15,329 bases of DNA, from positions 1-15,329 of IMG/VR virus record IMGVR_UViG_2531839583_000004; one strand, given 5' to 3'. This document shows, piece by piece, positions 1-15,329 of the stretch. The notes beneath the pieces are model-generated. The model made no database searches, had not been told where the DNA came from, and saw nothing but the letters and a program-made list of their open reading frames with translations. Position numbers and translations under genes: made by a program. Origin of the DNA: a virus (Duplodnaviria > Heunggongvirae > Uroviricota > Caudoviricetes). Numbering within the stretch: the stretch's first letter is position 1; the number at the start of each line of letters is the position of its first letter.

Positions 1-671
1 CCGAATCACTCGGGCAACTTGCTCATCAAAACCTGTCAGCATGGATGATTGACGTCATCGGTCACGCAATAAGCGGTACGCAGGAGCGTGAATTATCTCT
101 GGCTGAATTATCCTGGTGGGCGGTCCGCAATCAGGTGGCGGACGCGCTACCGGAAGCGGTATTACGTCGTTCGCTGGGGTTGCGTGCGGAAAAAATTCGC
201 TCTGTGTACAGTGAAAGCGACATCATACCGGGAGAGCAGACCGCCACCAGCATACTGAAACAGCGCACAAAAAATCTTGCGCCGCTGCCTCACGCCCACC
301 AGCAACAGAACCCACCACAGGAAAAGACGGTGGTCAGCATTGCCGTTGATCCCGAGTCACCGGCTCAGTATCTCCAGCGCCAGAAATCACAACGGGAAGA
401 GATGCCTGTATACACGCGCTGGGTAAAAACGCAGAAATGCATGACGTGTGGCAATCAGGCAGATGATCCGCATCACATCATTGGTCATGGACTGGGAGGG
501 ATGGGAACAAAGGCTGATGATTTGTTTGTTATTCCGCTGTGCCGTAAATGCCATAGCGAACTACACGCCGGGGTAAAAGATTTTGAAGAAAAACACGGCA
601 GCCAGCTGTTGTTGCTGATTCGTTTTTTAATGCACGCGAGAAATTCGGGTGTTCTGAAGTGGAAAGCATAA
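1..671 (+). CDS. 5'-truncated phage ORF with C-terminal Cys/His HNH-like zinc-binding motif (DUF968/YdfU-like nin-region protein); the frame is open to the window edge
   Basis: Reading frame is open from position 3 through stop at 669-671 with no upstream stop. C-terminal motif CMTCGNQADDPHHIIGHGLGG...IPLCRKCHSELH resembles HNH/zinc-ribbon. Lies immediately upstream of rusA, as such ORFs do in lambdoid prophages. Confidence 0.5.
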   Translation, partial: ESLGQLAHQNLSAWMIDVIGHAISGTQERELSLAELSWWAVRNQVADALPEAVLRRSLGLRAEKIRSVYSESDIIPGEQTATSILKQRTKNLAPLPHAHQQQNPPQEKTVVSIAVDPESPAQYLQRQKSQREEMPVYTRWVKTQKCMTCGNQADDPHHIIGHGLGGMGTKADDLFVIPLCRKCHSELHAGVKDFEEKHGSQLLLLIRFLMHARNSGVLKWKA

Positions 672-1037
672 ATGACTGAACGCATAGAATTTGTTTTGCC
701 TTACCCGCCAACGGTGAACACTTACTGGCGACGTCGTGGCAGCACATATTTTGTATCAAAAGCCGGTGAGCGTTATCGCCGTGATGTGGCGCTTATTGTT
801 CGCCAGCAGCGGCTGAAATTAAACCTGTCCGGAAGGCTGGCGATAAAGATTATTGCAGAGCCACCGGATAAACGTCGTCGTGACCTGGACAATATCCTGA
901 AAGCACCACTGGATGCGCTGACGCATGCCGGACTTCTCATAGACGACGAGCAGTTTGATGAAATCAATATTGTGCGCGGTCAGCGCGTTCCTGGGGGGCG
1001 GCTGGGCGTGAAGATTTACAAAATTGAGAGTGAGTGA
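672..1037 (+). CDS. rusA: RusA-family Holliday junction resolvase
   Basis: 121 aa; conserved RusA signature PDKRRRDLDNILKAPLDAL with acidic catalytic residues; start ATG directly follows the upstream stop; typical position upstream of Q. Confidence 0.9.
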   Translation: MTERIEFVLPYPPTVNTYWRRRGSTYFVSKAGERYRRDVALIVRQQRLKLNLSGRLAIKIIAEPPDKRRRDLDNILKAPLDALTHAGLLIDDEQFDEINIVRGQRVPGGRLGVKIYKIESE

Positions 1038-1588
1038 TCGTAAATATGATATACCCGGAAATTACAGGCAAAAGCGGCGAGCATTTACGTCTAAAAACGC
1101 TGGAAGCCGTCTGGATCCAGGGGAAATTACGGATGTGGGGGCGTTGGTCGTATATAGGTGGTGGCAAACCAGGAAATATGTTCAATCAGTTGCTGGCATC
1201 CAAAAAACTGACAAAAACCGCAATCAATGAAGCCCTGCGTAGAATCAGGGAGTCAGGGATTGATAAACCAGAGCTGGAAGCATTCTTGCGAGAGATGATC
1301 GCTGGCAGACAGAAGAGCTGGTTGTCTCACTGTACTGATGCAGAGGCGTTACGCATTGATGGGGTGATAAGTAAAGCGCTTGCACGTTATCCTGGATTGA
1401 TTGATATCCTGCGGCAAAGGTACGAAGGGCGGGGGATGAGTAAACGCAAAATGGCTGAATTGTTGAATGAGGTGCACCCGGAATGGTGTTTTAGTACATG
1501 CGAAAAGCGAATTGCTAATTGGTTAGCTGTTGCTGAATATGCGCTATACATCCCTATGCGAGAATCGTTTGCTCAAAAAATGTCTTGA
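1034..1588 (+). CDS. putative late-gene antitermination protein (Q-like, non-lambda family)
   Basis: 184 aa ORF whose start overlaps the rusA stop (ATGA), suggesting translational coupling. Sits between rusA and a promoter-plus-terminator region, the canonical Q position. Possible His/Cys metal site (SHC...HPEWCFSTC). No recognisable similarity to lambda Q, so function is inferred from position. Confidence 0.5.
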   Translation: MIVNMIYPEITGKSGEHLRLKTLEAVWIQGKLRMWGRWSYIGGGKPGNMFNQLLASKKLTKTAINEALRRIRESGIDKPELEAFLREMIAGRQKSWLSHCTDAEALRIDGVISKALARYPGLIDILRQRYEGRGMSKRKMAELLNEVHPEWCFSTCEKRIANWLAVAEYALYIPMRESFAQKMS

Positions 1589-1613
1589 TTTTTTACGCAT
1601 AAACTGTTTCAAT
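1585..1613 (+). promoter_or_regulatory. candidate late promoter (pR'-like): TTGATT, 17 bp spacer, TTCAAT
   Basis: -35-like TTGATT at 1585-1590 and a weak -10-like TTCAAT at 1608-1613, immediately downstream of the Q-like gene and about 60 bp upstream of a strong terminator, mirroring the lambda pR'/tR' arrangement. Confidence 0.25.
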
Positions 1614-1671
1614 CCAGCTACGCTTCGCAAAGCTATACCGCGAGGCGAATAGCAGACATGGACACCTGAAA

Positions 1672-1697
1672 GAACCCGCTTTATGCGGGTTTTTTTG
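1672..1697 (+). terminator. rho-independent terminator (tR'-like)
   Basis: Hairpin CCCGC (1675-1679) / GCGGG (1685-1689) with loop TTTAT, followed by a run of seven T (1690-1696). Confidence 0.8.
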
Positions 1698-1819
1698 TGC
1701 CCGAAAAGCGGTACAGGACGTTAAATGCGCTGGTGGTTGCGAATGCCGGTCTTTCAGCTTGCTGGCTTTTTCGACAAGAGGTATTGGTATGTCACGTTAA
1801 CCGGAAAAGGGAAAAAGGC

Positions 1820-2017
1820 ATGCTAAAACAGCAGGATATGACCGAAACCGCCAGAGTGGTGTTTAATGAATTAAGCATCACCGAACCGGCGACCGTCGGG
1901 GAAATTGCGCAGAATACTTACCTTTCACGCGAACGCTGCCAGTTAATACTGACTCAGCTTGTTATGGCGGGTCTGGCAGATTATCAGTTCGGTTGTTACA
2001 GACGCCTTCCGCAGTGA
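1820..2017 (+). CDS. small hypothetical protein (65 aa), possible DNA-binding fold
   Basis: ATG at 1820 preceded by a purine-rich stretch (GGAAAAGGGAAAAAGGC). The track ORF 1697..2017 would start inside the terminator hairpin, so the internal start is preferred. Its own terminator follows at 2004-2026. Confidence 0.4.
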   Translation: MLKQQDMTETARVVFNELSITEPATVGEIAQNTYLSRERCQLILTQLVMAGLADYQFGCYRRLPQ

Positions 2018-2026
2018 AGGCTTTTT
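2004..2026 (+). terminator. rho-independent terminator overlapping the 3' end of the small ORF
   Basis: Stem GCCTTC (2004-2009) / GAAGGC (2016-2021) with loop CGCAGT, followed by TTTTT (2022-2026). Confidence 0.6.
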
Positions 2027-2167
2027 AATTTGTGGTAATGGGCGGCTGGGGGGTGTTAGCGGCACCTGCCAGCCATCTGCTCATGCGTTGGGGTCACAAG
2101 CAAACCTCAGGCCCATCTGCTTTGCGCAAAAGCGGTATGAGCCTATCAGAGAAGTGCTTATTGATCT

Positions 2168-3217
2168 ATGATTAATACTGTAAAAATATCCAGTTGTGAG
2201 TTAATCAACGCTGATTGCCTGGAGTTTATCCAGACCTTACCGGAAAATTCTGTCGATCTGATAGTCACAGACCCGCCATACTTTAAAGTGAAGCCCGAGG
2301 GCTGGGATAACCAGTGGGAGGGCGACGATGATTACCTGAAATGGCTGGACCAGTGTCTGGCGCAGTTCTGGCGGGTACTGAAGCCTACCGGAAGTCTTTA
2401 CCTGTTCTGTGGTCATCGCCTGGCATCTGACACCGAAATCATGATGCGTGAGCGCTTTAATGTGCTGAACCACATTATCTGGGCGAAGCCGTCCGGACGC
2501 TGGAACGGGTGCAATAAGGAAAGTCTGCGGGCGTATTTTCCGGCAACAGAGCGCATTCTGTTTGCAGAACATTATCAGGGACCGTATCGCCCGAAAGATG
2601 ATGGCTATGTGGCACAGGGGCGCGAGCTAAAACAGCACGTCATGGCCCCGCTGATTTCTTACTTTCGTGATGCGCGTAAATCACTGGGAATAACGTCAAA
2701 ACAGATAGCGGAAGCCACCGGAAAGAAAAACATGGCTTCGCACTGGTTTGGTACCAGTCAGTGGCAGTTACCGAACGAGGGGGATTACAACAAATTGCAG
2801 GCGTTGTTTGCGCGTGTTGCGGCAGAAAAACATCAGCGCGGGGAACTGGAAAAGCCACACCACCAGCTGGTCAGCACATACAGTGAGCTGAACCGGCAGT
2901 ACACGGAACTGCTGAGTGAATATAAAAATTTGCGGCGGTATTTCGGTGTGACGGCGCAGGTTCCGTACACCGATGTCTGGACGCATAAACCGGTGCAGTA
3001 CTATCCAGGAAAACATCCGTGCGAAAAACCGGCAGAAATGCTGCAGCAGATAATCAACGCGAGCAGTCGTCCGGGAGACCTGGTTGCAGATTTTTTTATG
3101 GGTTCAGGTTCAACGGTAAAAGCGGCGATGGCACTGGGGCGTTGTGCGATTGGTGTTGAGCTGGAGACAGGACGTTTTGAACAGACAGTCAGGGAAGTTC
3201 AGGATTTAATCGTTTGA
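2168..3217 (+). CDS. DNA amino-methyltransferase (N6-adenine or N4-cytosine), beta-class, orphan
   Basis: 349 aa. Motif IV DPPY (LIVTDPPYF) near the N-terminus and motif I FxGxG (DFFMGSGST) near the C-terminus give the beta-class order. A central region with an HTH-like segment (LGITSKQIAEATGK) is the likely target-recognition region. No adjacent restriction endonuclease ORF. Confidence 0.9.
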   Translation: MINTVKISSCELINADCLEFIQTLPENSVDLIVTDPPYFKVKPEGWDNQWEGDDDYLKWLDQCLAQFWRVLKPTGSLYLFCGHRLASDTEIMMRERFNVLNHIIWAKPSGRWNGCNKESLRAYFPATERILFAEHYQGPYRPKDDGYVAQGRELKQHVMAPLISYFRDARKSLGITSKQIAEATGKKNMASHWFGTSQWQLPNEGDYNKLQALFARVAAEKHQRGELEKPHHQLVSTYSELNRQYTELLSEYKNLRRYFGVTAQVPYTDVWTHKPVQYYPGKHPCEKPAEMLQQIINASSRPGDLVADFFMGSGSTVKAAMALGRCAIGVELETGRFEQTVREVQDLIV

Positions 3218-3266
3218 AACGGATGAGATTGCAGAATTAATTACGCACCATTATTATTCTGCTCCC

Positions 3267-3342
3267 GGCCCTTTAGCTCAGTGGTGAGAGCGAGCGACTC
3301 ATAATCGCCAGGTCGCTGGTTCAAATCCAGCAAGGGCCACCA
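3267..3342 (+). tRNA. tRNA with anticodon CAU (Ile2/lysidine-type or Met), including encoded CCA
   Basis: Cloverleaf: acceptor GGCCCTT/AAGGGCC, D-arm GCTC...GAGC, anticodon loop CTCATAA (anticodon CAT at 3300-3302), T-loop GGTTCAAATCC, 3' ACCA. Very close to E. coli ileX and to ileZ of Stx phages as recalled. Confidence 0.9.
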
Positions 3343-3349
3343 TCACATA

Positions 3350-3423
3350 CCGCCATTAGCTCATCGACAGAGAGTGCCAGCTTTCGAAACTGGCTGTGTG
3401 GGGCTCGGGTCCCCGATGGCAAT
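3350..3423 (+). pseudogene. degenerate tRNA-like element (possible decayed tRNA-Arg, anticodon-like TCG)
   Basis: Partial cloverleaf: acceptor CCGCCAT/ATGGCAA with two terminal mismatches, D-arm GCTC...GAGA, anticodon-like stem GCCAG/CTGGC around a 9-nt loop CTTTCGAAA (TCG central), T-arm TGGGG-CTCGGGT-CCCCG. No encoded CCA. Confidence 0.3.
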
Positions 3424-3439
3424 CCATTATCTGCATTAT

Positions 3440-3516
3440 GCGTTGTTAGCTCAGCCGGACAGAGCAATTGCCTTCTAAGCAATCGGTCACTGGTTCGAAT
3501 CCAGTACAACGCGCCA
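3440..3516 (+). tRNA. tRNA-Arg (anticodon UCU), including encoded CCA
   Basis: Acceptor GCGTTGT/ACAACGC, D-arm GCTCAGCCGGACAGAGC, anticodon loop CTTCTAA (anticodon TCT), T-loop GGTTCGAATCC, discriminator G plus CCA at 3514-3516. Resembles the argU/argO type. Confidence 0.9.
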
Positions 3517-3529
3517 CGCTTATTTTTCC

Positions 3530-3554
3530 AGGCTCGCTTTGGCGGGCCTTTTTC
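3530..3554 (+). terminator. rho-independent terminator downstream of the tRNA cluster
   Basis: Stem AGGCTCGC (3530-3537) / GCGGGCCT (3542-3549) including one G-U pair, loop TTTG, followed by TTTT (3550-3553). Confidence 0.5.
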
Positions 3555-3763
3555 ATATCCGCGCCCGTTATGAAGCGCCACCGCGTTCTGCTAATGCTGA
3601 AGCCCTTCGTCAGCTGACTGATGTTGCAGATACTGATGATACTGTGAATGTGCTGTGTCTGTGTCTGGATATCGCTGACCAGGACGGTATCGGTCAGGAA
3701 GAAGAAGCGCAACTGAAGAAAATTGCGCAGGCGCTGCAGTTGCCGCTGGAGCAGTACCTGTGA
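3539..3763 (+). pseudogene. TerB-like C-terminal fragment (probable gene remnant, 74 codons, no ATG start)
   Basis: ORF begins at TTG inside the terminator hairpin and has no in-frame ATG. The translation (VLCLCLDIADQDGIGQEEEAQLKKIAQALQLP) resembles the C-terminal half of TerB/DjlA-N-type domains as I recall them. GC-rich. Confidence 0.3.
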
Positions 3764-3912
3764 AAAGTGCGCGCCTTGTGCTGGCTGTCATCCTGTTGTT
3801 TCTGGTAGTGATGGTGGATTTCACCGGACGACTGATGTCAGTGCTGGCAGATGGTGTGCTGGTGGCGATGGCGCTGATCGTGCTCCGGCCTTTACTGCGT
3901 AAATCTGAATAA
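3760..3912 (+). CDS. small hydrophobic membrane protein (50 aa), GTG start overlapping the upstream stop
   Basis: GTG at 3760 overlaps TGA 3761-3763 (GTGA). Translation VKSARLVLAVILLFLVVMVDFTGRLMSVLADGVLVAMALIVLRPLLRKSE predicts two hydrophobic helices. Below the ORF-track size cutoff. Confidence 0.35.
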   Translation: MKSARLVLAVILLFLVVMVDFTGRLMSVLADGVLVAMALIVLRPLLRKSE

Positions 3913-4000
3913 CATCACACAAAAGGCATCTGCGGGGGCCTTTGACGGGGTGTTTTTTTACGGGTCGCTGGTGGCCCTTTTTTTATTTTCAGGAGGAAGT

Positions 4001-4390
4001 ATGTCTGAACCCTTATCCGGTTCCGGCACGGCTGCGGCGCTGGGTGGCGCGACGGTATTCGGGCTGTTTACCGGGATGGATTTCGGGATTGTGTTTGGCG
4101 CGTTCGCCGGGGCGTTATTTGTGGCAACGATGCCGCAGTCACTTTCAGTCTGGCGCGTGGTGGCGCATTTTCTGGTGTCGTTTATTGTCGGCGTGCTGGG
4201 AGCGCGTGTGCTGTCAGCCTGGATTGCATCAAAAACAGGGTATGACGGTACATCGGCAGATGCGCTGTGTGCGGTGCTGGTATCGGTGGTGTCGGTGAAG
4301 ATTCTGTCGTTCATCCACCAGCAGGATATTGCATCGTTGGTGTCCGGTGTGTTCTCCCGTCTGCGGGGTGGAGGCGGTAATGTTAAGTAA
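4001..4390 (+). CDS. putative holin (multi-pass membrane protein, 129 aa)
   Basis: Strong Shine-Dalgarno AGGAGGA 5 nt upstream of ATG 4001. Gly/Ala-rich hydrophobic segments with a charged C-terminal tail. First gene of a cassette ending in an endolysin. No similarity to lambda S recalled. Confidence 0.55.
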   Translation: MSEPLSGSGTAAALGGATVFGLFTGMDFGIVFGAFAGALFVATMPQSLSVWRVVAHFLVSFIVGVLGARVLSAWIASKTGYDGTSADALCAVLVSVVSVKILSFIHQQDIASLVSGVFSRLRGGGGNVK

Positions 4391-4655
4391 CCTTCCCGGA
4401 TTACTGAATGTGGTGTTAAGCACGGTTATCGTGCTGACGCTCTTTTTTTATCGTCGTGGTGATTCCAGACATAAACCGCTGATGTCGTGGCTGGCCTGGC
4501 TGCTGATGCTGCTGTATGCCTTTGCGCCACTTTGTTATCTGTGTGGTCGCTTTCCACCCGGTAACTGGCTGGTCGTCCTGATTAACCTGGTGTTCTGCGT
4601 GCTGGTGATACGAGCACGCGGGAACGTATCAAAAATCCTTTCATTACGGAGGTGA
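4380..4655 (+). CDS. second lysis-cassette membrane protein (holin/antiholin-like, 91 aa)
   Basis: GGAGG 5 nt upstream of ATG 4380; overlaps the holin 3' end by 11 nt; stop is 2 nt before the endolysin start. Predicted 2-3 transmembrane segments. Confidence 0.5.
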   Translation: MLSNLPGLLNVVLSTVIVLTLFFYRRGDSRHKPLMSWLAWLLMLLYAFAPLCYLCGRFPPGNWLVVLINLVFCVLVIRARGNVSKILSLRR

Positions 4656-4657
4656 GT

Positions 4658-5035
4658 ATGCCCGGTAAATTCAGATTCAGTCGTCGAAGTGAGAAAAATC
4701 TGGAGGGCGTCAAACCACAGCTGGTTGCTGTTGTTCGCCGTGCGCTGGAGCTGACGGAGGTTGACTTCGGTATTACGGAAGGCCTGCGCAGTAAGTATCG
4801 CCAGAAGCAGCTGGTCGCGGAAGGGAAAAGCCAGACCATGAACAGCCGCCACCTGACCGGTGATGCGGTGGATGTTGTGGCCTACATTGGTAGCCAGGTG
4901 TCATGGGACTGGCCTCTGTACGAGAAAATCGCGCAGGCATTTAAGCAGGCTGCCGCAGAGCTGGGAACTGCCATCGAATGGGGCGGGGACTGGAAAACAC
5001 TGAAAGACGGGCCTCACTTTCAGTTGAAGTGCTAA
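4658..5035 (+). CDS. endolysin, peptidase M15 family (L-alanyl-D-glutamate endopeptidase, T5 Lys-like)
   Basis: GGAGG 5 nt upstream of ATG 4658. Conserved Zn-ligand context SRHL...DAVD...DGPHFQL (His, Asp, His) typical of M15 phage endolysins. About 126 aa. Confidence 0.85.
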   Translation: MPGKFRFSRRSEKNLEGVKPQLVAVVRRALELTEVDFGITEGLRSKYRQKQLVAEGKSQTMNSRHLTGDAVDVVAYIGSQVSWDWPLYEKIAQAFKQAAAELGTAIEWGGDWKTLKDGPHFQLKC

Positions 5036-5049
5036 TAACCAGGTGGTTT

Positions 5050-5232
5050 ATGAGCCGAAAACACTGGACACACAGAATGCCGCGAACGGCGGCGAAATGG
5101 GCACTGGTAGCGATACTGGTGCCTTTTTTCCTGGTGGGATGCGTTAGCCTGGATAAGGTGCGCCAGCTTTTCGATACGGCCTCGCAGGTCTGCGAAATTG
5201 TCGAAAGTGCCAGGCAGTGTATGCAGAACTGA
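5050..5232 (+). CDS. small lipoprotein (lipobox LVGC); possible o-spanin-like or other lysis-associated lipoprotein
   Basis: AGGTGG upstream of ATG 5050. Signal peptide AKWALVAILVPFFLVG followed by Cys; mature peptide about 30 aa with three Cys. Immediately follows the endolysin. No Rz-like partner ORF detected. Confidence 0.5.
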   Translation: MSRKHWTHRMPRTAAKWALVAILVPFFLVGCVSLDKVRQLFDTASQVCEIVESARQCMQN

Positions 5233-5319
5233 TCGCCTGTAAGAGCAGAATATTGTTGAATCTAAATTTACTTTGAACAGTGGCCCGGATGGAAAGGGCA
5301 TCTAAATAGGAGCAGAAAA

Positions 5320-5529
5320 ATGTTAACTGTAAAAGTCATGTCTCAAAATGGTGGGGAAGAGCTCCATTGCGGGCGTAGCATTGGCTATCATCCAGAGCAG
5401 CGGAGTATTGCCGTATCGGGAAAGGATGGGAAAGTCATTCTGAAAGATGGAGATATTGCTTATGTAATGAACCAAAACGCTCAAATAATATCTGTTTATC
5501 GGCCCAATAATAGTCAGAAAAACATTTGA
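5320..5529 (+). CDS. hypothetical small protein (69 aa) in AT-rich moron
   Basis: Good Shine-Dalgarno AGGAG 6 nt upstream of ATG 5320. Low-GC codon usage distinct from flanking phage genes. Confidence 0.5.
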   Translation: MLTVKVMSQNGGEELHCGRSIGYHPEQRSIAVSGKDGKVILKDGDIAYVMNQNAQIISVYRPNNSQKNI

Positions 5530-5571
5530 ATTTCGCAAGTCCAAAGTTCAGTGGTGATCGTTATCAACTAA

Positions 5572-5600
5572 TTGAAATAACAAGCTTATGTTTGTGTAAT
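5572..5600 (+). promoter_or_regulatory. candidate sigma70 promoter (TTGAAA, 17 bp spacer, TGTAAT) for the second moron ORF
   Basis: TTGAAA at 5572-5577, 17-bp spacer, TGTAAT at 5595-5600, about 50 bp upstream of the ORF starting at 5653. Confidence 0.35.
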
Positions 5601-5652
5601 TGGTGATATAGCATGTTAATGCTGAATATCAGCGTCAACATGGAGTTATACA

Positions 5653-5868
5653 ATGGTTTTTAAACACTATTACGTGAACAAAAATGCTCAGAGCAATGGC
5701 GATCATGAGGTGCATGCTGAGGAATGTTCATATCTTCCTGCTGTAGCTAACCGCGATTACCTTGGTTACTATAGTGATTGTTCTTCGGCGGTAACAGAGG
5801 CAAAGGCCAAAGGATATTCCCGGGTGAATGGTTGCTATTGGTGTGCCAATAAGTGCCACACGTCTTAA
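5653..5868 (+). CDS. hypothetical small Cys/His-rich protein (71 aa) in AT-rich moron
   Basis: GGAG 8 nt upstream of ATG 5653. Cys/His pattern (EEC...DC...GCYWCANKCH) suggests a metal-binding mini-domain. Followed directly by a terminator. Confidence 0.5.
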   Translation: MVFKHYYVNKNAQSNGDHEVHAEECSYLPAVANRDYLGYYSDCSSAVTEAKAKGYSRVNGCYWCANKCHTS

Positions 5869-5887
5869 TCAATTGTCAATAAACCAT

Positions 5888-5911
5888 AAAGGCCGCTCTG
5901 CGGCCTTTTTC
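5888..5911 (+). terminator. rho-independent terminator closing the moron
   Basis: Stem GGCCG (5891-5895) / CGGCC (5901-5905), loop CTCTG, then TTTTT (5906-5910); an upstream A-run makes it potentially bidirectional. Confidence 0.7.
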
Positions 5912-6185
5912 ATGTTAAAAAAGATTGCGGCATTACAGCAGCCCTTCACACTGAGTGGCTGCGATAATGTGAGAAATAAAAAACCGGCAGGGGAAATCCA
6001 TTGAAGATTTGCCGGTGGCAAAAAGATGGCCATGCTTTCAACCTTAGTCGCAGGGTTACGGAGTGCAACTACGAATGCTGCCGGTATATGGCTGAATGGC
6101 GTTTCAATGATGTACGTCATCTTATCTGTAAATGTTAATGATAAAAGCTCTCATTTGTGCGGGTCCTTCCGGTGGGGTGGCCTGC

Positions 6186-6206
6186 CACGGGGCGGAAGGC
6201 GCGCGG
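6186..6206. other. cosN (cohesive-end site), variant 12-nt core GGGCGGAAGGCG
   Basis: Flanking sequence ...CACG|GGGCGG......|CGCGGGTTTTCGCTATTTATGAAAATTTTCCGG matches the lambda left end as recalled. The 12-nt core differs from lambda GGGCGGCGACCT at positions 7-10 and 12. Confidence 0.6.
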
Positions 6207-6239
6207 GTTTTCGCTATTTATGAAAATTTTCCGGGGAAA

Positions 6240-6356
6240 ATCATGTCGGTACTTCTCGAACATAACTATTTGTTTTTTCTAATATCGAATCCGTAAAAGG
6301 TCCGACATGAAAACGCCTAAAAAAGTCATTTTCGGGCACTTTCATGTCGGACCCTG
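6240..6356. promoter_or_regulatory. cosB-like region: three CATGTCGG(A/T)C repeats (R3, inverted R2, R1) around an AT-rich putative IHF-bending segment
   Basis: CATGTCGGTAC at 6242-6252 (+), TCCGACATGAAA at 6301-6312 (inverted), TTTCATGTCGGACC at 6341-6354 (+); AT-rich spacer 6254-6298. Arrangement parallels lambda R3-I1-R2-R1 but with a different repeat sequence. Confidence 0.55.
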
Positions 6357-6377
6357 TGTTTGTTGTGAGACTGTTTC

Positions 6378-6897
6378 ATGAAGGTTAATAAAAAGAAACT
6401 TGCCGAAATTTTCAACGTGGATCCGCGAACGATTGAACGCTGGCAGTCTCAGGGACTCCCTTGCGTCTCCGGAGGTGGTAAGGGCGTTGAATCTGTATTT
6501 GATACCTCCATGGCAATTCAGTGGTATGCGCAGAGGGAGGCTGATATCGAAAATGAAAAACTCCGTAAAGAGGTTGAGGATTACAGGGCTGCCAGTGAGG
6601 CAGATCTCCAGCCTGGGACTATTGAGTACGAACGCCATCGACTTACGCGTGCGCAGGCCGACGCACAGGAGCTGAAGAATGCCAGAGACTCCGCAGAAGT
6701 GGTGGAAACCGCATTCTGTACTTTCGTGCTGTCACGGATCGCAGGTGAAATTGCCAGTATTCTTGACGGGATCCCTCTCTCGGTACAGCGGCGTTTTCCG
6801 GAACTGGAAAACCGACATGTTGATTTCCTGAAACGGGATATCATCAAAGCCATGAACAAAGCAGCCGCGCTGGATGAACTGATACCGGGGTTGCTGA

Positions 6898-6923
<26 letters not shown>
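6378..6923 (+). CDS. nu1: terminase small subunit Nu1
   Basis: 181 aa. C-terminal two thirds essentially identical to lambda Nu1 as recalled; N-terminal winged-HTH region homologous but diverged. Located just downstream of cos. Confidence 0.95.
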
Positions 6924-10604
<3,681 letters not shown>

Positions 10605-10624
<20 letters not shown>

Positions 10625-11924
10625 TCTCCCGCATATTGCCAGCATGGCCTTTAATGAGCCGCTGATGCTTGAACCCGCCTATGCGCGGGTTTTCTTTTGT
10701 GCGCTTGCAGGCCAGCTTGGGATCAGCCGCCTGACGGATGCGGTGTCCGGCGACAGCCTGACTGCCCAGGAGGCACTCGTGACGCTGGCATTATCCGGTG
10801 ATGATGACGGACCACGACAGGCCCGCAGTTATCAGGTCATGAACGGCATCGCCGTGCTGCCGGTGTCCGGCACGCTGGTCAGCCGGACGCGGGCGCTGCA
10901 GCCGTACTCGGGGATGACCGGTTACAACGGCATTATCGCCCGTCTGCAACAGGCTGCCAGCGACCCGATGGTGGACGGCATTCTGCTCGATATGGACACG
11001 CCAGGCGGAATGGTGGCGGGGGCATTTGACTGCGCTGACATCATCGCCCGTGTGCGTGACATAAAACCGGTATGGGCGCTGGCCAACGACATGAACTGCA
11101 GTGCAGGTCAGCTGCTTGCCAGTGCCGCCTCCCGGCGTCTGGTCACGCAGACCGCCCGGACAGGCTCCATCGGCGTCATGATGGCTCACAGTAATTACGG
11201 TGCTGCCCTGGAGAAACAGGGTGTGGAAATCACGCTGATTTACAGCGGCAGCCATAAGGGGGATGGCAATCCCTACAGCCATCTTCCGGATGACGTCCGG
11301 GAGACACTGCAGTCCCGGATGGACGCAACCCGCCAGATGTTTGCGCAGAAGGGGTCGGCATATACCGGCCTGTCTGTGCAGGCTGTGCTGGATACCGAGG
11401 CTGCAGTGTACAGCGGTCAGGAGGCCATTGATGCCGGACTGGCTGATGAACTTGTTAACAGCACCGATGCGATCACCGTCATGCGTGATGCACTGGATGC
11501 GCGTAAATCCCGTCTCTCAGGAGGGCGAATGACCAAAGAGACTCAATCAACAACTGTTTCAGCCACTGCTTCGCAGACTGACGTTACTGACGTGGTGCCA
11601 GCGACGGAGGGCGAAAACGCCAGCGCGGCGCAGCCGGACGTGAACGCGCAGATCACCGCTGCGGTTGCGGCAGAAAACAGCCGCATTATGGGGATCCTCA
11701 ACTGTGAGGAGGCTCACGGACGCGAAGAACAGGCCCGCGTGCTGGCAGAAACCCCCGGTATGACCGTGGAAACGGCCCGCCGCATTCTGGCAGCTGCACC
11801 ACAGAGTGCACAGGCGCGCAGTGACACTGCGCTGGATCGTCTGATGCAGGGGGCACCGGCACCGCTGGCTGCAGGTAACCCGGCATCTGATGCCGTTAAC
11901 GATTTGCTGAACACACCAGTGTAA
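10605..11924 (+). CDS. C: capsid assembly protease / minor capsid protein C
   Basis: GTG start at 10605 overlapping the B 3' end by 20 nt; 439 codons; translation VTAELRNLPHIASMAFNEPLMLEP... matches lambda gpC. The track ORF start at 10458 lies inside B and is rejected. Confidence 0.93.
11319..11924 (+). CDS. nu3: scaffolding protein Nu3 (in-frame internal start within C)
   Basis: In-frame ATG at 11319 giving MDATRQMFAQKGSAYTGL..., co-terminal with C as in lambda. Confidence 0.8.
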   Translation: MDATRQMFAQKGSAYTGLSVQAVLDTEAAVYSGQEAIDAGLADELVNSTDAITVMRDALDARKSRLSGGRMTKETQSTTVSATASQTDVTDVVPATEGENASAAQPDVNAQITAAVAAENSRIMGILNCEEAHGREEQARVLAETPGMTVETARRILAAAPQSAQARSDTALDRLMQGAPAPLAAGNPASDAVNDLLNTPV

Positions 11925-11933
11925 GGGATGTTT

Positions 11934-12266
11934 ATGACGAGCAAAGAAACCTTTACCCATTACCAGCCGCTGGGCAACAGTGACCCGGCACATACGGCAA
12001 CCGCGCCCGGCGGATTGAGTGCGAAAGCGCCTGCAATGACCCCGCTGATGCTGGACCCCTCCACCCGTAAGCTGGTTGTGTGGGATGGCACCACCGACGG
12101 TGCTGCCGTTGGCATTCTGGCGGTTGCTGCTGACCAGACCAGCACCACGCTGACGTTCTACAAGTCCGGCACGTTCCGTTATGAGGATGTGCTCTGGCCG
12201 GAGGCTGCCAGCGACGAGACGAAAAAACGGACCGCGTTTGCCGGAACGGCAATCAGCATCGTTTAA
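11934..12266 (+). CDS. D: head decoration protein D
   Basis: 110 aa, [27 protein letters not shown]... matches lambda gpD; Shine-Dalgarno AAGGGA upstream of ATG 11934. Confidence 0.95.
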
Positions 12267-12286
12267 CCTTACCCTTCATCACTAAA

Positions 12287-12308
12287 GGCCGCCTGTGCGG
12301 CTTTTTTT
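12287..12308 (+). terminator. intergenic hairpin plus T-run between D and E (terminator/attenuator-like)
   Basis: Stem GCCGC (12288-12292) / GCGGC (12297-12301), loop CTGT, then TTTTTTT (12302-12308). Confidence 0.45.
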
Positions 12309-12321
12309 ACGGGATTTTTTT

Positions 12322-13347
12322 ATGTCGATGTACACAACCGCCCAGCTGCTGGCGGCAAATGAGAAGAAATTTAAGTTTGATCCGCTGTTTCTGCGTCTCT
12401 TTTTCCGTGAGAGCTATCCCTTCACCACGGAGAAAGTCTATCTCTCACAAATTCCGGGACTGGTAAACATGGCGCTGTACGTTTCGCCGATTGTTTCCGG
12501 TGAGGTTATCCGCTCCCGTGGCGGCTCCACCTCTGAATTTACACCGGGATATGTCAAGCCGAAGCATGAGGTGAATCCGCAGATGACCCTGCGTCGCCTG
12601 CCGGATGAAGATCCACAGAATCTGGCGGACCCGGCTTACCGCCGCCGTCGCATCATTCTGCAGAACATGCGAGACGAAGAGCTGGCCATTGCTCAGGTCG
12701 AAGAGATGCAGGCCGTTTCTGCCGTGCTTAAGGGCAAATATACCATGACCGGTGAAGCCTTCGATCCGGTTGAAGTGGATATGGGCCGCAGTGTGGCGAA
12801 CAACATCACGCAGTCCGGCGGTACGGAGTGGAGCAAGCGTGACAAGTCCACGTATGACCCGACCGACGATATCGAAGCCTACGCGCTGAACGCCAGCGGT
12901 GTGGTGAATATCATCGTGTTTGATCCGAAAGGCTGGGCGCTGTTCCGTTCCTTCAAAGCCGTCAGGGAGAAGCTGGATGCCCGTCGCGGCTCTCATTCCG
13001 AGCTGGAGACAGCGGTAAAAGATCTGGGCGAAGCGGTGTCCTATAAGGGGATGTATGGCGATACGGCGATCGTCGTGTATTCCGGACAGTACGTGGAAAA
13101 CGACGTCAAAAAGAACTTCCTGCCGGACAACACGATGGTGCTGGGGAACACTCAGGCACGCGGTCTGCGCACCTATGGCTGCATTCAGGATGCGGACGCA
13201 CAGCGCGAAGGTATTAACGCCTCTGCCCGCTACCCGAAAAACTGGGTGACCACCGGCGATCCGGCGCGTGAGTTCACCATGATTCAGTCAGCACCGCTGA
13301 TGCTGCTGGCTGACCCTGATGCGTTCGTGTCCGTACAACTGGCGTAA
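12322..13347 (+). CDS. E: major capsid protein E
   Basis: 341 aa, MSMYTTAQLLAANEKKFKFDPLFLRLFF... matches lambda gpE. ATG 12322 is preferred over the track start 12295, which lies inside the hairpin. Confidence 0.97.
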   Translation: MSMYTTAQLLAANEKKFKFDPLFLRLFFRESYPFTTEKVYLSQIPGLVNMALYVSPIVSGEVIRSRGGSTSEFTPGYVKPKHEVNPQMTLRRLPDEDPQNLADPAYRRRRIILQNMRDEELAIAQVEEMQAVSAVLKGKYTMTGEAFDPVEVDMGRSVANNITQSGGTEWSKRDKSTYDPTDDIEAYALNASGVVNIIVFDPKGWALFRSFKAVREKLDARRGSHSELETAVKDLGEAVSYKGMYGDTAIVVYSGQYVENDVKKNFLPDNTMVLGNTQARGLRTYGCIQDADAQREGINASARYPKNWVTTGDPAREFTMIQSAPLMLLADPDAFVSVQLA

Positions 13348-13388
13348 TCATGGCCCTTCGGGGCCATTTTCTCTCTGTGGAGGAGTCC

Positions 13389-13784
13389 ATGACGAAAGAT
13401 GAACTGATTGCCCGTCTTCAGGTGCTGGGTGAGCAACTGAACCGTGATGTCAGCCTGACGGGGACGAAAGAAGAACTGGCACTCCGTGTGGCAGAGCTGG
13501 AAGAGGAGCTTGATGACACGGATGACGCTGCTGGTCAGGACACATCTGTCAGCCCGGAAAATGCGCTGACCGGACATGAAAATGAGGTTGTATCAGCGCA
13601 GCCGGATACCGTGACTGATACGGCTGATCTGGTCACGGTTGTGGCACTGGTGACGCTGCATACTGATGCACTTCACGCCACGCGGGATGAGGCTGTGGCA
13701 TTTGTGCTGCCGGGAACGGCGTTCCGTGTCTCTGCCGGTGTGGCAGCTGAAATGACAGAGCGCGGCCTGGCCAGAATGCAATAA
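13389..13784 (+). CDS. FI: DNA packaging / head completion protein FI
   Basis: 131 aa, MTKDELIARLQVLGEQLNRDVSLTGTKEELALRVAELEEEL... matches lambda gpFI; Shine-Dalgarno GGAGGAG upstream. Confidence 0.9.
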   Translation: MTKDELIARLQVLGEQLNRDVSLTGTKEELALRVAELEEELDDTDDAAGQDTSVSPENALTGHENEVVSAQPDTVTDTADLVTVVALVTLHTDALHATRDEAVAFVLPGTAFRVSAGVAAEMTERGLARMQ

Positions 13785-13795
13785 CGGGAGGCGCT

Positions 13796-14149
13796 GTGGC
13801 TGATTTCGATAACCTGTTCGATGCTGCCATTGCCCGCGCCGATGAAACGATACGCGGGTACATGGGAACGTCAGCCACCATGACATCCGGTGAGCAGTCC
13901 GGTGCTGTGATACGTGGTGTTTTTGATGATCCTGAAAATATCAGCTATGCCGGACAGGGCGTGCGCGTTGAAGGCTCCAGCCCGTCCCTGTTTGTCCGGA
14001 CTGATGATGTGCGGCAGCTGCGGCGTGGAGACACGCTGACCATCGGTGAGGAAAACTTCTGGGTAGATCGGGTTACGCCGGATGATGGCGGAAGCTGTCA
14101 TCTCTGGCTTGGGCGGGGGGTACCGCCTGCCGTTAACCGTCGCCGCTGA
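13796..14149 (+). CDS. FII: head-tail connector protein FII
   Basis: GTG start at 13796; 117 aa; ADFDNLFDAAIARADETIRGYMGT... matches lambda gpFII. Confidence 0.9.
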   Translation: MADFDNLFDAAIARADETIRGYMGTSATMTSGEQSGAVIRGVFDDPENISYAGQGVRVEGSSPSLFVRTDDVRQLRRGDTLTIGEENFWVDRVTPDDGGSCHLWLGRGVPPAVNRRR

Positions 14150-14160
14150 AAGGGGGATGT

Positions 14161-14739
14161 ATGGCCATAAAAGGTCTTGAGCAGGCCGTTGAAAACCTCA
14201 GCCGTATCAGCAAAACGGCGGTGCCTGGTGCCGCCGCAATGGCCATTAACCGCGTTGCTTCATCCGCGATATCGCAGTCGGCGTCACAGGTTGCCCGTGA
14301 GACAAAGGTACGCCGGAAACTGGTAAAGGAAAGGGCCAGGCTGAAAAGGGCCACGGTCAAAAATCCGCAGGCCAGAATCAAAGTTAACCGGGGGGATTTG
14401 CCCGTAATCAGGCTGGGTAACGCGCGGGTTGTCCTGTCCCGACGCAGGCGTCGTAAAAAGGGGCAGCGTTCAGCCCTGAAAGGTGGCGGCAGCGTGCTTG
14501 TGGTGGGAAACCGTCGTATTCCCGGCGCGTTTATTCAGCAACTGAAAAATGGCCGCTGGCATGTCATGCAGCGTGTGGCCGGGAAAAACCGTTACCCCAT
14601 TGATGTGGTGAAAATCCCGATGGCGGTGCCGCTGACCACGGCGTTTAAACAGAATATTGAACGGATACGGCGTGAACGTCTTCCGAAAGAGCTGGGCTAT
14701 GCGCTGCAGCATCAACTGAGAATGGTAATAAAGCGATGA
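14161..14739 (+). CDS. Z: tail completion protein Z
   Basis: 192 aa, MAIKGLEQAVENLSRISKTAVPGAAAMAINRV... matches lambda gpZ; Shine-Dalgarno AGGGGGA upstream. Confidence 0.95.
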   Translation: MAIKGLEQAVENLSRISKTAVPGAAAMAINRVASSAISQSASQVARETKVRRKLVKERARLKRATVKNPQARIKVNRGDLPVIRLGNARVVLSRRRRRKKGQRSALKGGGSVLVVGNRRIPGAFIQQLKNGRWHVMQRVAGKNRYPIDVVKIPMAVPLTTAFKQNIERIRRERLPKELGYALQHQLRMVIKR

Positions 14740-15131
14740 AACATACTGAACTCCGTGCAGCCGTACTGGATGCACTGGAGAAGCATGACACCGGGGCGAC
14801 GCTTTTTGATGGTCGCCCCGCTGTTTTTGATGAGGCGGATTTTCCGGCAGTTGCCGTTTATCTCACCGGCGCTGAATACACGGGCGAAGAGCTGGACAGC
14901 GATACCTGGCAGGCGGAGCTGCATATCGAAGTTTTCCTGCCTGCTCAGGTGCCGGATTCAGAGCTGGATGCGTGGATGGAGTCCCGGATTTATCCGGTGA
15001 TGAGCGATATCCCGGCACTGTCAGATTTGATCACCAGTATGGTGGCCAGCGGCTATGACTACCGGCGCGACGATGATGCGGGCCTGTGGAGTTCAGCCGA
15101 TCTGACTTATGTCATTACCTATGAAATGTGA
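14736..15131 (+). CDS. U: tail tube terminator protein U
   Basis: 131 aa, MKHTELRAAVLDALEKHDTGATLFDGRPAVFDEADF... matches lambda gpU; ATGA overlap with the Z stop. Confidence 0.95.
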   Translation: MKHTELRAAVLDALEKHDTGATLFDGRPAVFDEADFPAVAVYLTGAEYTGEELDSDTWQAELHIEVFLPAQVPDSELDAWMESRIYPVMSDIPALSDLITSMVASGYDYRRDDDAGLWSSADLTYVITYEM

Positions 15132-15138
15132 GGACGCT

Positions 15139-15159
15139 ATGCCTGTACGGAAACATTGA
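15139..15159 (+). pseudogene. V: vestigial start of major tail gene V (ATGCCTGTAC) followed by an in-frame stop after 6 codons
   Basis: Sequence AGGACGCTATGCCTGTAC matches the lambda U-V junction and V start as recalled, then diverges; frame reads M-P-V-R-K-H-stop. Confidence 0.4.
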
Positions 15160-15329
15160 CTTTATCGAGATCTCGGCGCGCGGTCTGCCTTCTTCGCTTA
15201 CTGCTGATAATGTATCTCGTTACCTGAGTATACGCCGTTTAGGGCCAACCGGGCTAATCAATAGCATGCAAATGCGTTACGGCCTGGTTAAAGATGATGG
15301 CTTTATTGAGGTTTGGGCCTTCCAGCGTG

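Follow-up and report, generated by a model that had tools for sequence, protein, structure and literature searches.

DLP12, located at argU in Escherichia coli K-12, is a classic example of lambdoid prophage decay. In the prophage of E. coli HS that carries essQ, rrrQ and pinQ (L019 11080-14102, NC_009800.1), an independent internal deletion fuses two truncated late genes; a terminase large subunit lacking its C-terminus is joined to a tail tip protein J lacking its N-terminus, and lom and stf, the side-tail-fibre gene (1258 aa), are kept. Deletion is a described route of prophage decay, and lambdoid prophages are known to decay by internal deletions together with IS insertions (PMC6379469). 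The locus studied here lies at the end of a 15,329-nucleotide stretch of phage DNA, hereafter the window. It is similar to the HS prophage in that two truncated late genes are fused; however, the breakpoints fall in V and stf instead of in A and J, and the stf gene of HS is full length. We consider it highly probable that one large deletion in a lambda-like prophage removed about 12 kb and joined base 10 of V to codon 390 of stf by illegitimate recombination at a TAC trinucleotide, which would have left the V and stf remnants non-functional and the prophage tail-less and without infectious particles alone. The event is ordinary prophage decay, of a kind already known, and is neither an insertion nor a new gene.

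The window resembles the lambda late operon (J02459/NC_001416) at 99.1% identity over Z, U and the first 10 bases of V, the match ending at window position 15148 (lambda 8964), and the joined pieces follow the lambda order and strand. It differs from lambda in lacking the roughly 12 kb that separate V base 10 from stf codon 390. The features around the breakpoint, in window coordinates, are the following.

14736..15131, + strand: U, tail terminator gene, intact, 131 aa (ORF list; Pfam PF06141 Phage_tail_U, full length, E=2.2e-61).
15130..15134, + strand: GAGGA, purine-rich, 5 bases upstream of the V start; putative V ribosome-binding site, as read from the sequence.
15139..15159, + strand: V remnant, MPVRKH followed by TGA at 15157-15159 (translation).
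15146..15148, + strand: V/stf junction, read as that of a deletion, with the 3-base microhomology TAC (base-by-base comparison with the intact V of the relative L003 and the intact stf of E. coli HS and phage Ayreon).
15149..15329, running off the window, + strand: stf internal fragment, codons 390-449 plus the first base of codon 450, of about 1252-1258 codons (identity to Ayreon and E. coli stf).

The left parent of the joint is a lambda-type Z-U-V region. Lambda and 92 other phage records matched window 14600-15148 at up to 99.3% identity, and all matches listed end at 15148. When 14900-15329 was used as the query, 3,749 of 5,426 complete E. coli genomes gave a match, all but six of them falling short of the full query; among the matches listed, those that fell short end at 15148 as well. 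The best relative over the whole window is a prophage adjoining potC in strain 504838 (L003), which is 98.7% identical over 1-15148 and continues beyond that point into intact V, G, T, H, M, L, K, I, J, lom, stf and tfa. Its V gene, which begins with the same 10 bases and is preceded by an identical GAGGA string, encodes a protein with the tail tube domain PF16461 (Phage_TTP_12; E=1.6e-70, Pfam). The window holds no complete ORF of about 246 aa with this domain; 10 bases of V and a six-codon frame are what is left. The exact Z protein of the window is widespread (2628 blocks of the collection), and the search with it returned only intact prophages. U is the last complete gene ahead of the scar. 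Within U there is a 13-nt inverted repeat (14788-14824, + strand; 92% complementary, with 11 nt between the arms), which is also present in one of the junction-bearing chromosomes described below (L007) and is probably insignificant.

The right parent is stf. Over 15150-15329 the window matches, at 99.4% identity, an interior segment of the gene annotated as "side tail fiber protein" in phage Ayreon, and at least 85 E. coli genomes have an stf gene that matches 15149-15329 at 100% identity, several of these genes being full length. The allele is that of Ayreon and of the E. coli HS prophage (about 1252-1258 codons). In the HS gene of 1258 codons, codon 390 begins at the base equivalent to window position 15149, and the open frame of the window is the stf frame. 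The peptide YGNIDFIEISAR... corresponds to Stf residues 389 onward. The first-pass annotation had called the sequence of the open frame unfamiliar; it can now be identified as Stf residues 390-449, at 99.4-100% nucleotide identity to stf genes. An open stretch of 68 codons has a probability of about 0.04-0.05 of arising by chance, and is on its own weakly significant; it is because of the nucleotide identity to stf in the same reading frame that we regard it as real coding sequence. Pfam matched no family in either the 68-aa frame or a 500-aa version of the remnant, so the assignment to stf relies on nucleotide identity to annotated stf genes. In intact Ayreon Stf, Pfam places PF08400 (phage_tail_N) at residues 1-134, which fall within the missing codons 1-389; the remnant has Stf homology in the stf reading frame, and both the N-terminal tail-attachment domain and a genuine start codon are absent from it. 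The C-terminal S74 peptidase/intramolecular chaperone domain would fall past the window edge.

At the joint itself, the V start codon occupies 15139-15141, and ATGCCTGTAC (15139-15148) consists of this ATG and 7 more V bases, after which the sequence is stf, out of frame. Leftward of 15149, the stf identity continues for exactly 3 more bases (TAC). These bases are common to V bases 8-10 and to the stf codon Tyr389, and the crossover lies within or beside them. V homology thus runs through 15148 and stf homology starts at 15146, with an overlap of TAC, colinear flanks and, by base-by-base comparison with both parents, no filler DNA, which is the configuration of a microhomology-mediated deletion. 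The stf frame is +1 relative to V. These results bear out the initial description of the locus as a lambda-like U-V junction followed by divergence, with a V frame that stops after six codons and a +1 frame, beginning at 15125 with a GTG at 15128, that is free of stops for 68 codons (to 15328) and reaches the window edge.

Eight other sequences have an identical junction, namely six complete chromosomes of E. coli and two contigs of IMG/VR, and it is accordingly not an assembly artefact or chimera. Three of the chromosomes were examined in detail (L001, L004 and L007, which are H3, H4 and H7, and not H5, H6 or H8); in each of them the junction sits in a decayed prophage of the DLP12 type, integrated at the tRNA gene argU. 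Like DLP12, these prophages are integrated at argU, where a partial int is followed by exo-bet-gam-kil-cIII, and their right-end cargo is of the appY-ompT-envY-ybcH type, of which appY, ompT and envY are retained in L007. They further resemble DLP12 as remnants of lambdoid prophages whose morphogenesis genes disappeared through internal deletions and the insertion of IS elements (PMC6379469). The window differs from DLP12 and from the other carriers in that its head and neck module is complete from Nu1 to U, which is not the case in them, and its left part resembles another prophage, the one adjoining potC in strain 504838. We take K-12 DLP12, in which the Nu1 homologue nohD is joined directly to tail-fibre-assembly fragments, to be a more advanced state of the same decay.

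In L007 (strain Res13-Lact-PEB20-37-A, NZ_CP062853.1) the stf frame is open for 872 codons past the junction, as far as its natural stop (12240-14859), and is annotated by PGAP as a pyocin knob domain-containing S74 family peptidase; tail-fibre-assembly (tfa) fragments, appY, ompT and envY follow. One would not quite expect a pseudogene to stay open over this length, although it would be explained if the remnant were of recent origin or had exchanged alleles with functional stf genes. The L007 remnant differs from the window by 15 substitutions that are clustered at window-equivalent positions 15205-15298 (94 bp), a distribution that looks like an allele patch introduced by recombination and not like decay in place. 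In L001 and L004 (strains 13P484A and EC190486), the stf remnant is cut by IS3 after about 490 stf codons; the insertion point (in the region 10690-10760 of L001, and at the equivalent position of L004) lies directly after GGTGCAAATA, and the last 12 codons of the "hypothetical protein" annotated there by PGAP (WP_236919972.1) are read-through into the end of IS3. The chromosomal genes ybcH and nfrA come next. In contrast to L007, these two strains are without the stf 3' end, appY, ompT and envY, the C-terminal S74 peptidase/intramolecular chaperone part of stf having been lost to IS3. This IS3 is 1.5 kb downstream of the V junction and is unrelated to it. The two junction-bearing IMG/VR contigs (L005, 4947 bp, and L006, 13789 bp) end 123-390 bases past the junction, and the window ends 181 bases past it; assemblies may break inside the multi-copy stf gene, which would explain where the window stops.

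A tblastn search with V, G, T, H, M, L, K, I, J and Lom of the intact relative gave no match downstream of the junction in the loci of the eight carriers, or in the window. In three intact relatives, the two breakpoints are 11,924, 12,345 and 12,348 bp apart, and both joined pieces lie on one strand in the lambda gene order (U, V to lom, stf). The deletion would accordingly have removed V, G/T, H, M, L, K, I, J, lom and stf codons 1-389, illegitimate recombination at the TAC microhomology having joined V base 10 to stf codon 390. At the level of sequence comparison, the parental identities of V and stf, the breakpoint, their frame relation and the lack of tail genes downstream in the other carriers are established. 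From these we infer the recombination mechanism and the occurrence of the deletion within one prophage; a microhomology of 3 bases is short and is weak evidence for any particular mechanism. Only 181 bases of the window lie beyond the junction, and the DNA that follows it would be expected to resemble that of the other carriers.

The window and the other carriers have the scar by common descent, but it sits in a recombination mosaic. Comparison of window 13255-15329 with L001 7352-9430 revealed a sharp mosaic boundary: the window and the argU carriers have 0 mismatches over 14803-15329 and 56 mismatches over 13255-14802, and there is no similarity to the left of 13255. This pattern indicates that recombination occurred around the scar after its formation. 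The other carriers lack the Nu1-to-E region, and in them a second deletion joins a fragment of the terminase small subunit gene to the end of E. The junction and an intact head module were not found together elsewhere: exact 42-mer and 25-mer scans of genome_contigs and a 42-mer scan of metagenome_contigs gave no copy of the junction, and an exact-junction scan of viral_contigs returned only two short, more decayed contigs. The window could represent either an earlier stage of decay or a recombinant that took up the scar by homologous exchange. Taken with the carriers in which decay has gone further, it is consistent with a stepwise decay in which the V-to-stf loss was followed by the Nu1-to-E loss, and then by the IS3 insertion and loss of the right end.

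The mosaic bears on a different origin of the junction, namely recombination between two prophages in one chromosome, one supplying V and the other stf, with a chromosomal deletion or rearrangement as the result, or the transfer of an existing scar into the window from a remnant of the DLP12 type by homologous recombination. Several lambdoid prophages with copies of U/V and stf are present in E. coli genomes (median 1, up to 7 places per genome), the allele of stf found at the joint differs from that of L003, the closest head-module relative, and the complete identity to the argU carriers begins only within U. Against this, in the complete genomes the scar lies in a single prophage that has argU and int on its left and DLP12 cargo (appY, ompT, envY, ybcH) on its right, in normal order and orientation, so no chromosomal rearrangement is needed, and the outcome would be equal either way, a non-functional V'-'stf scar. 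We regard such an origin as very improbable.

The first-pass annotation had offered three explanations for the interruption of V: an inactivating lesion; a breakpoint to a different tail module; and an insertion such as a mobile element, an intron or a homing-endonuclease-like cassette. The first has held up, in the form of a deletion of about 12 kb that leaves V as a six-codon ORF, and the other two have not. A junction between a lambda-type head and a different functional tail module, with the open frame as the first protein of that module, would fit the high mosaicism of lambdoid phages and that of the window relative to the other carriers, but it would call for an intact major tail protein in the open frame, and the frame proved to be the middle of a side-tail-fibre gene without a credible start. 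Moreover, no tail tube, tape measure or tip gene comes afterwards in any carrier, where the junction is followed only by truncated stf and then by tfa fragments, appY and ompT or by IS3 and ybcH; the joint interrupts two coding sequences and does not keep their frame, unlike functional mosaics, which join at gene boundaries. A module swap is therefore extremely improbable. Next to no credit can be given to an insertion of a mobile element, group I intron or homing-endonuclease cassette after the V start codon, with the rest of V further downstream, for which only the abrupt end of V homology after 10 bases and an unrecognised open frame at the window edge could be cited, since the DNA past the breakpoint is stf coding sequence (99-100%) colinear from codon 390, V to Lom are absent downstream in the eight other carriers, a repeat search detected no terminal inverted repeats, direct duplications or target-site duplication flanking the junction, Rfam at the gathering threshold identified two tRNAs in the window and no intron or other structured RNA, and neither the 68-aa nor the 500-aa remnant gave a Pfam match to a transposase or an endonuclease. 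By class, the locus is neither an IS element or transposon, there being no repeats, no transposase domain and no resumption of V, nor a group I or II intron or homing-endonuclease cassette, there being no intron RNA and no downstream V exon in any carrier.

The deletion reading also bears on what the remnants can still express. V is a six-codon ORF behind its own putative ribosome-binding site. A scan of 14600-15329 detected no promoter-like or terminator-like sites. The only in-frame start codons of the stf remnant are GTG 15128, ATG 15266 and ATG 15272, none of which has a purine-rich Shine-Dalgarno sequence upstream; ATG 15266 is the start chosen by PGAP in L001 and is not conserved in L007. 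Judged from these sequence features, the stf remnant lacks a start codon of its own, a ribosome-binding site and the N-terminal attachment domain, and a pseudogene fragment is the best description of it. In the head and neck module, Nu1, A, W, B, C, D, E, FI, FII, Z and U are all open, with lengths equal to those of the intact relative, and the prophage would be predicted to make at most tail-less heads and no infectious particles alone.

It is conceivable, if very doubtful, that the scar is not inert. Late-operon transcripts might continue past U into the stf remnant, and ribosomes ending at the U stop codon might restart at the overlapping GTG (ATGTGA, in which GTG 15128 overlaps TGA 15129). 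The product would be a free receptor-binding protein, an Stf without its N-terminus that could reach about 877 aa if the frame ran from this GTG to the stop codon seen in L007. If true, such a protein could serve, for example, as a receptor-masking exclusion factor. Separately, the tail-less heads might package DNA and borrow the tails of co-resident lambdoid phages.

Recombination of the stf/tfa regions of the defective prophages Rac and Qin with incoming lambda has been shown experimentally (PMC3945230), and by analogy the most plausible residual role of the stf fragment would be that of a recombination donor for incoming phages. With the deletion as the preferred explanation, the last 205 bases of the window should be annotated as a V'-'stf deletion scar, without calling V or any new ORF in them. 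The importance of this correction goes little beyond annotation; elsewhere, PGAP names the continuation of the frame "hypothetical protein" or "pyocin knob domain-containing S74 family peptidase".

In the left part of the window, two phage-borne tRNA genes (3267-3342 and 3440-3516, + strand) were found just downstream of a DNA methyltransferase ORF (2168..3217). One of them has the anticodon CAT and was called tRNA-Met by ARAGORN; the PGAP copy at the matching position of L003 is tRNA-Ile, and on the basis of that call the gene probably encodes a lysidine-type Ile tRNA. The other is tRNA-Arg (TCT). Both look like rare-codon tRNAs of the kind that lambdoid prophages carry upstream of their lysis genes.
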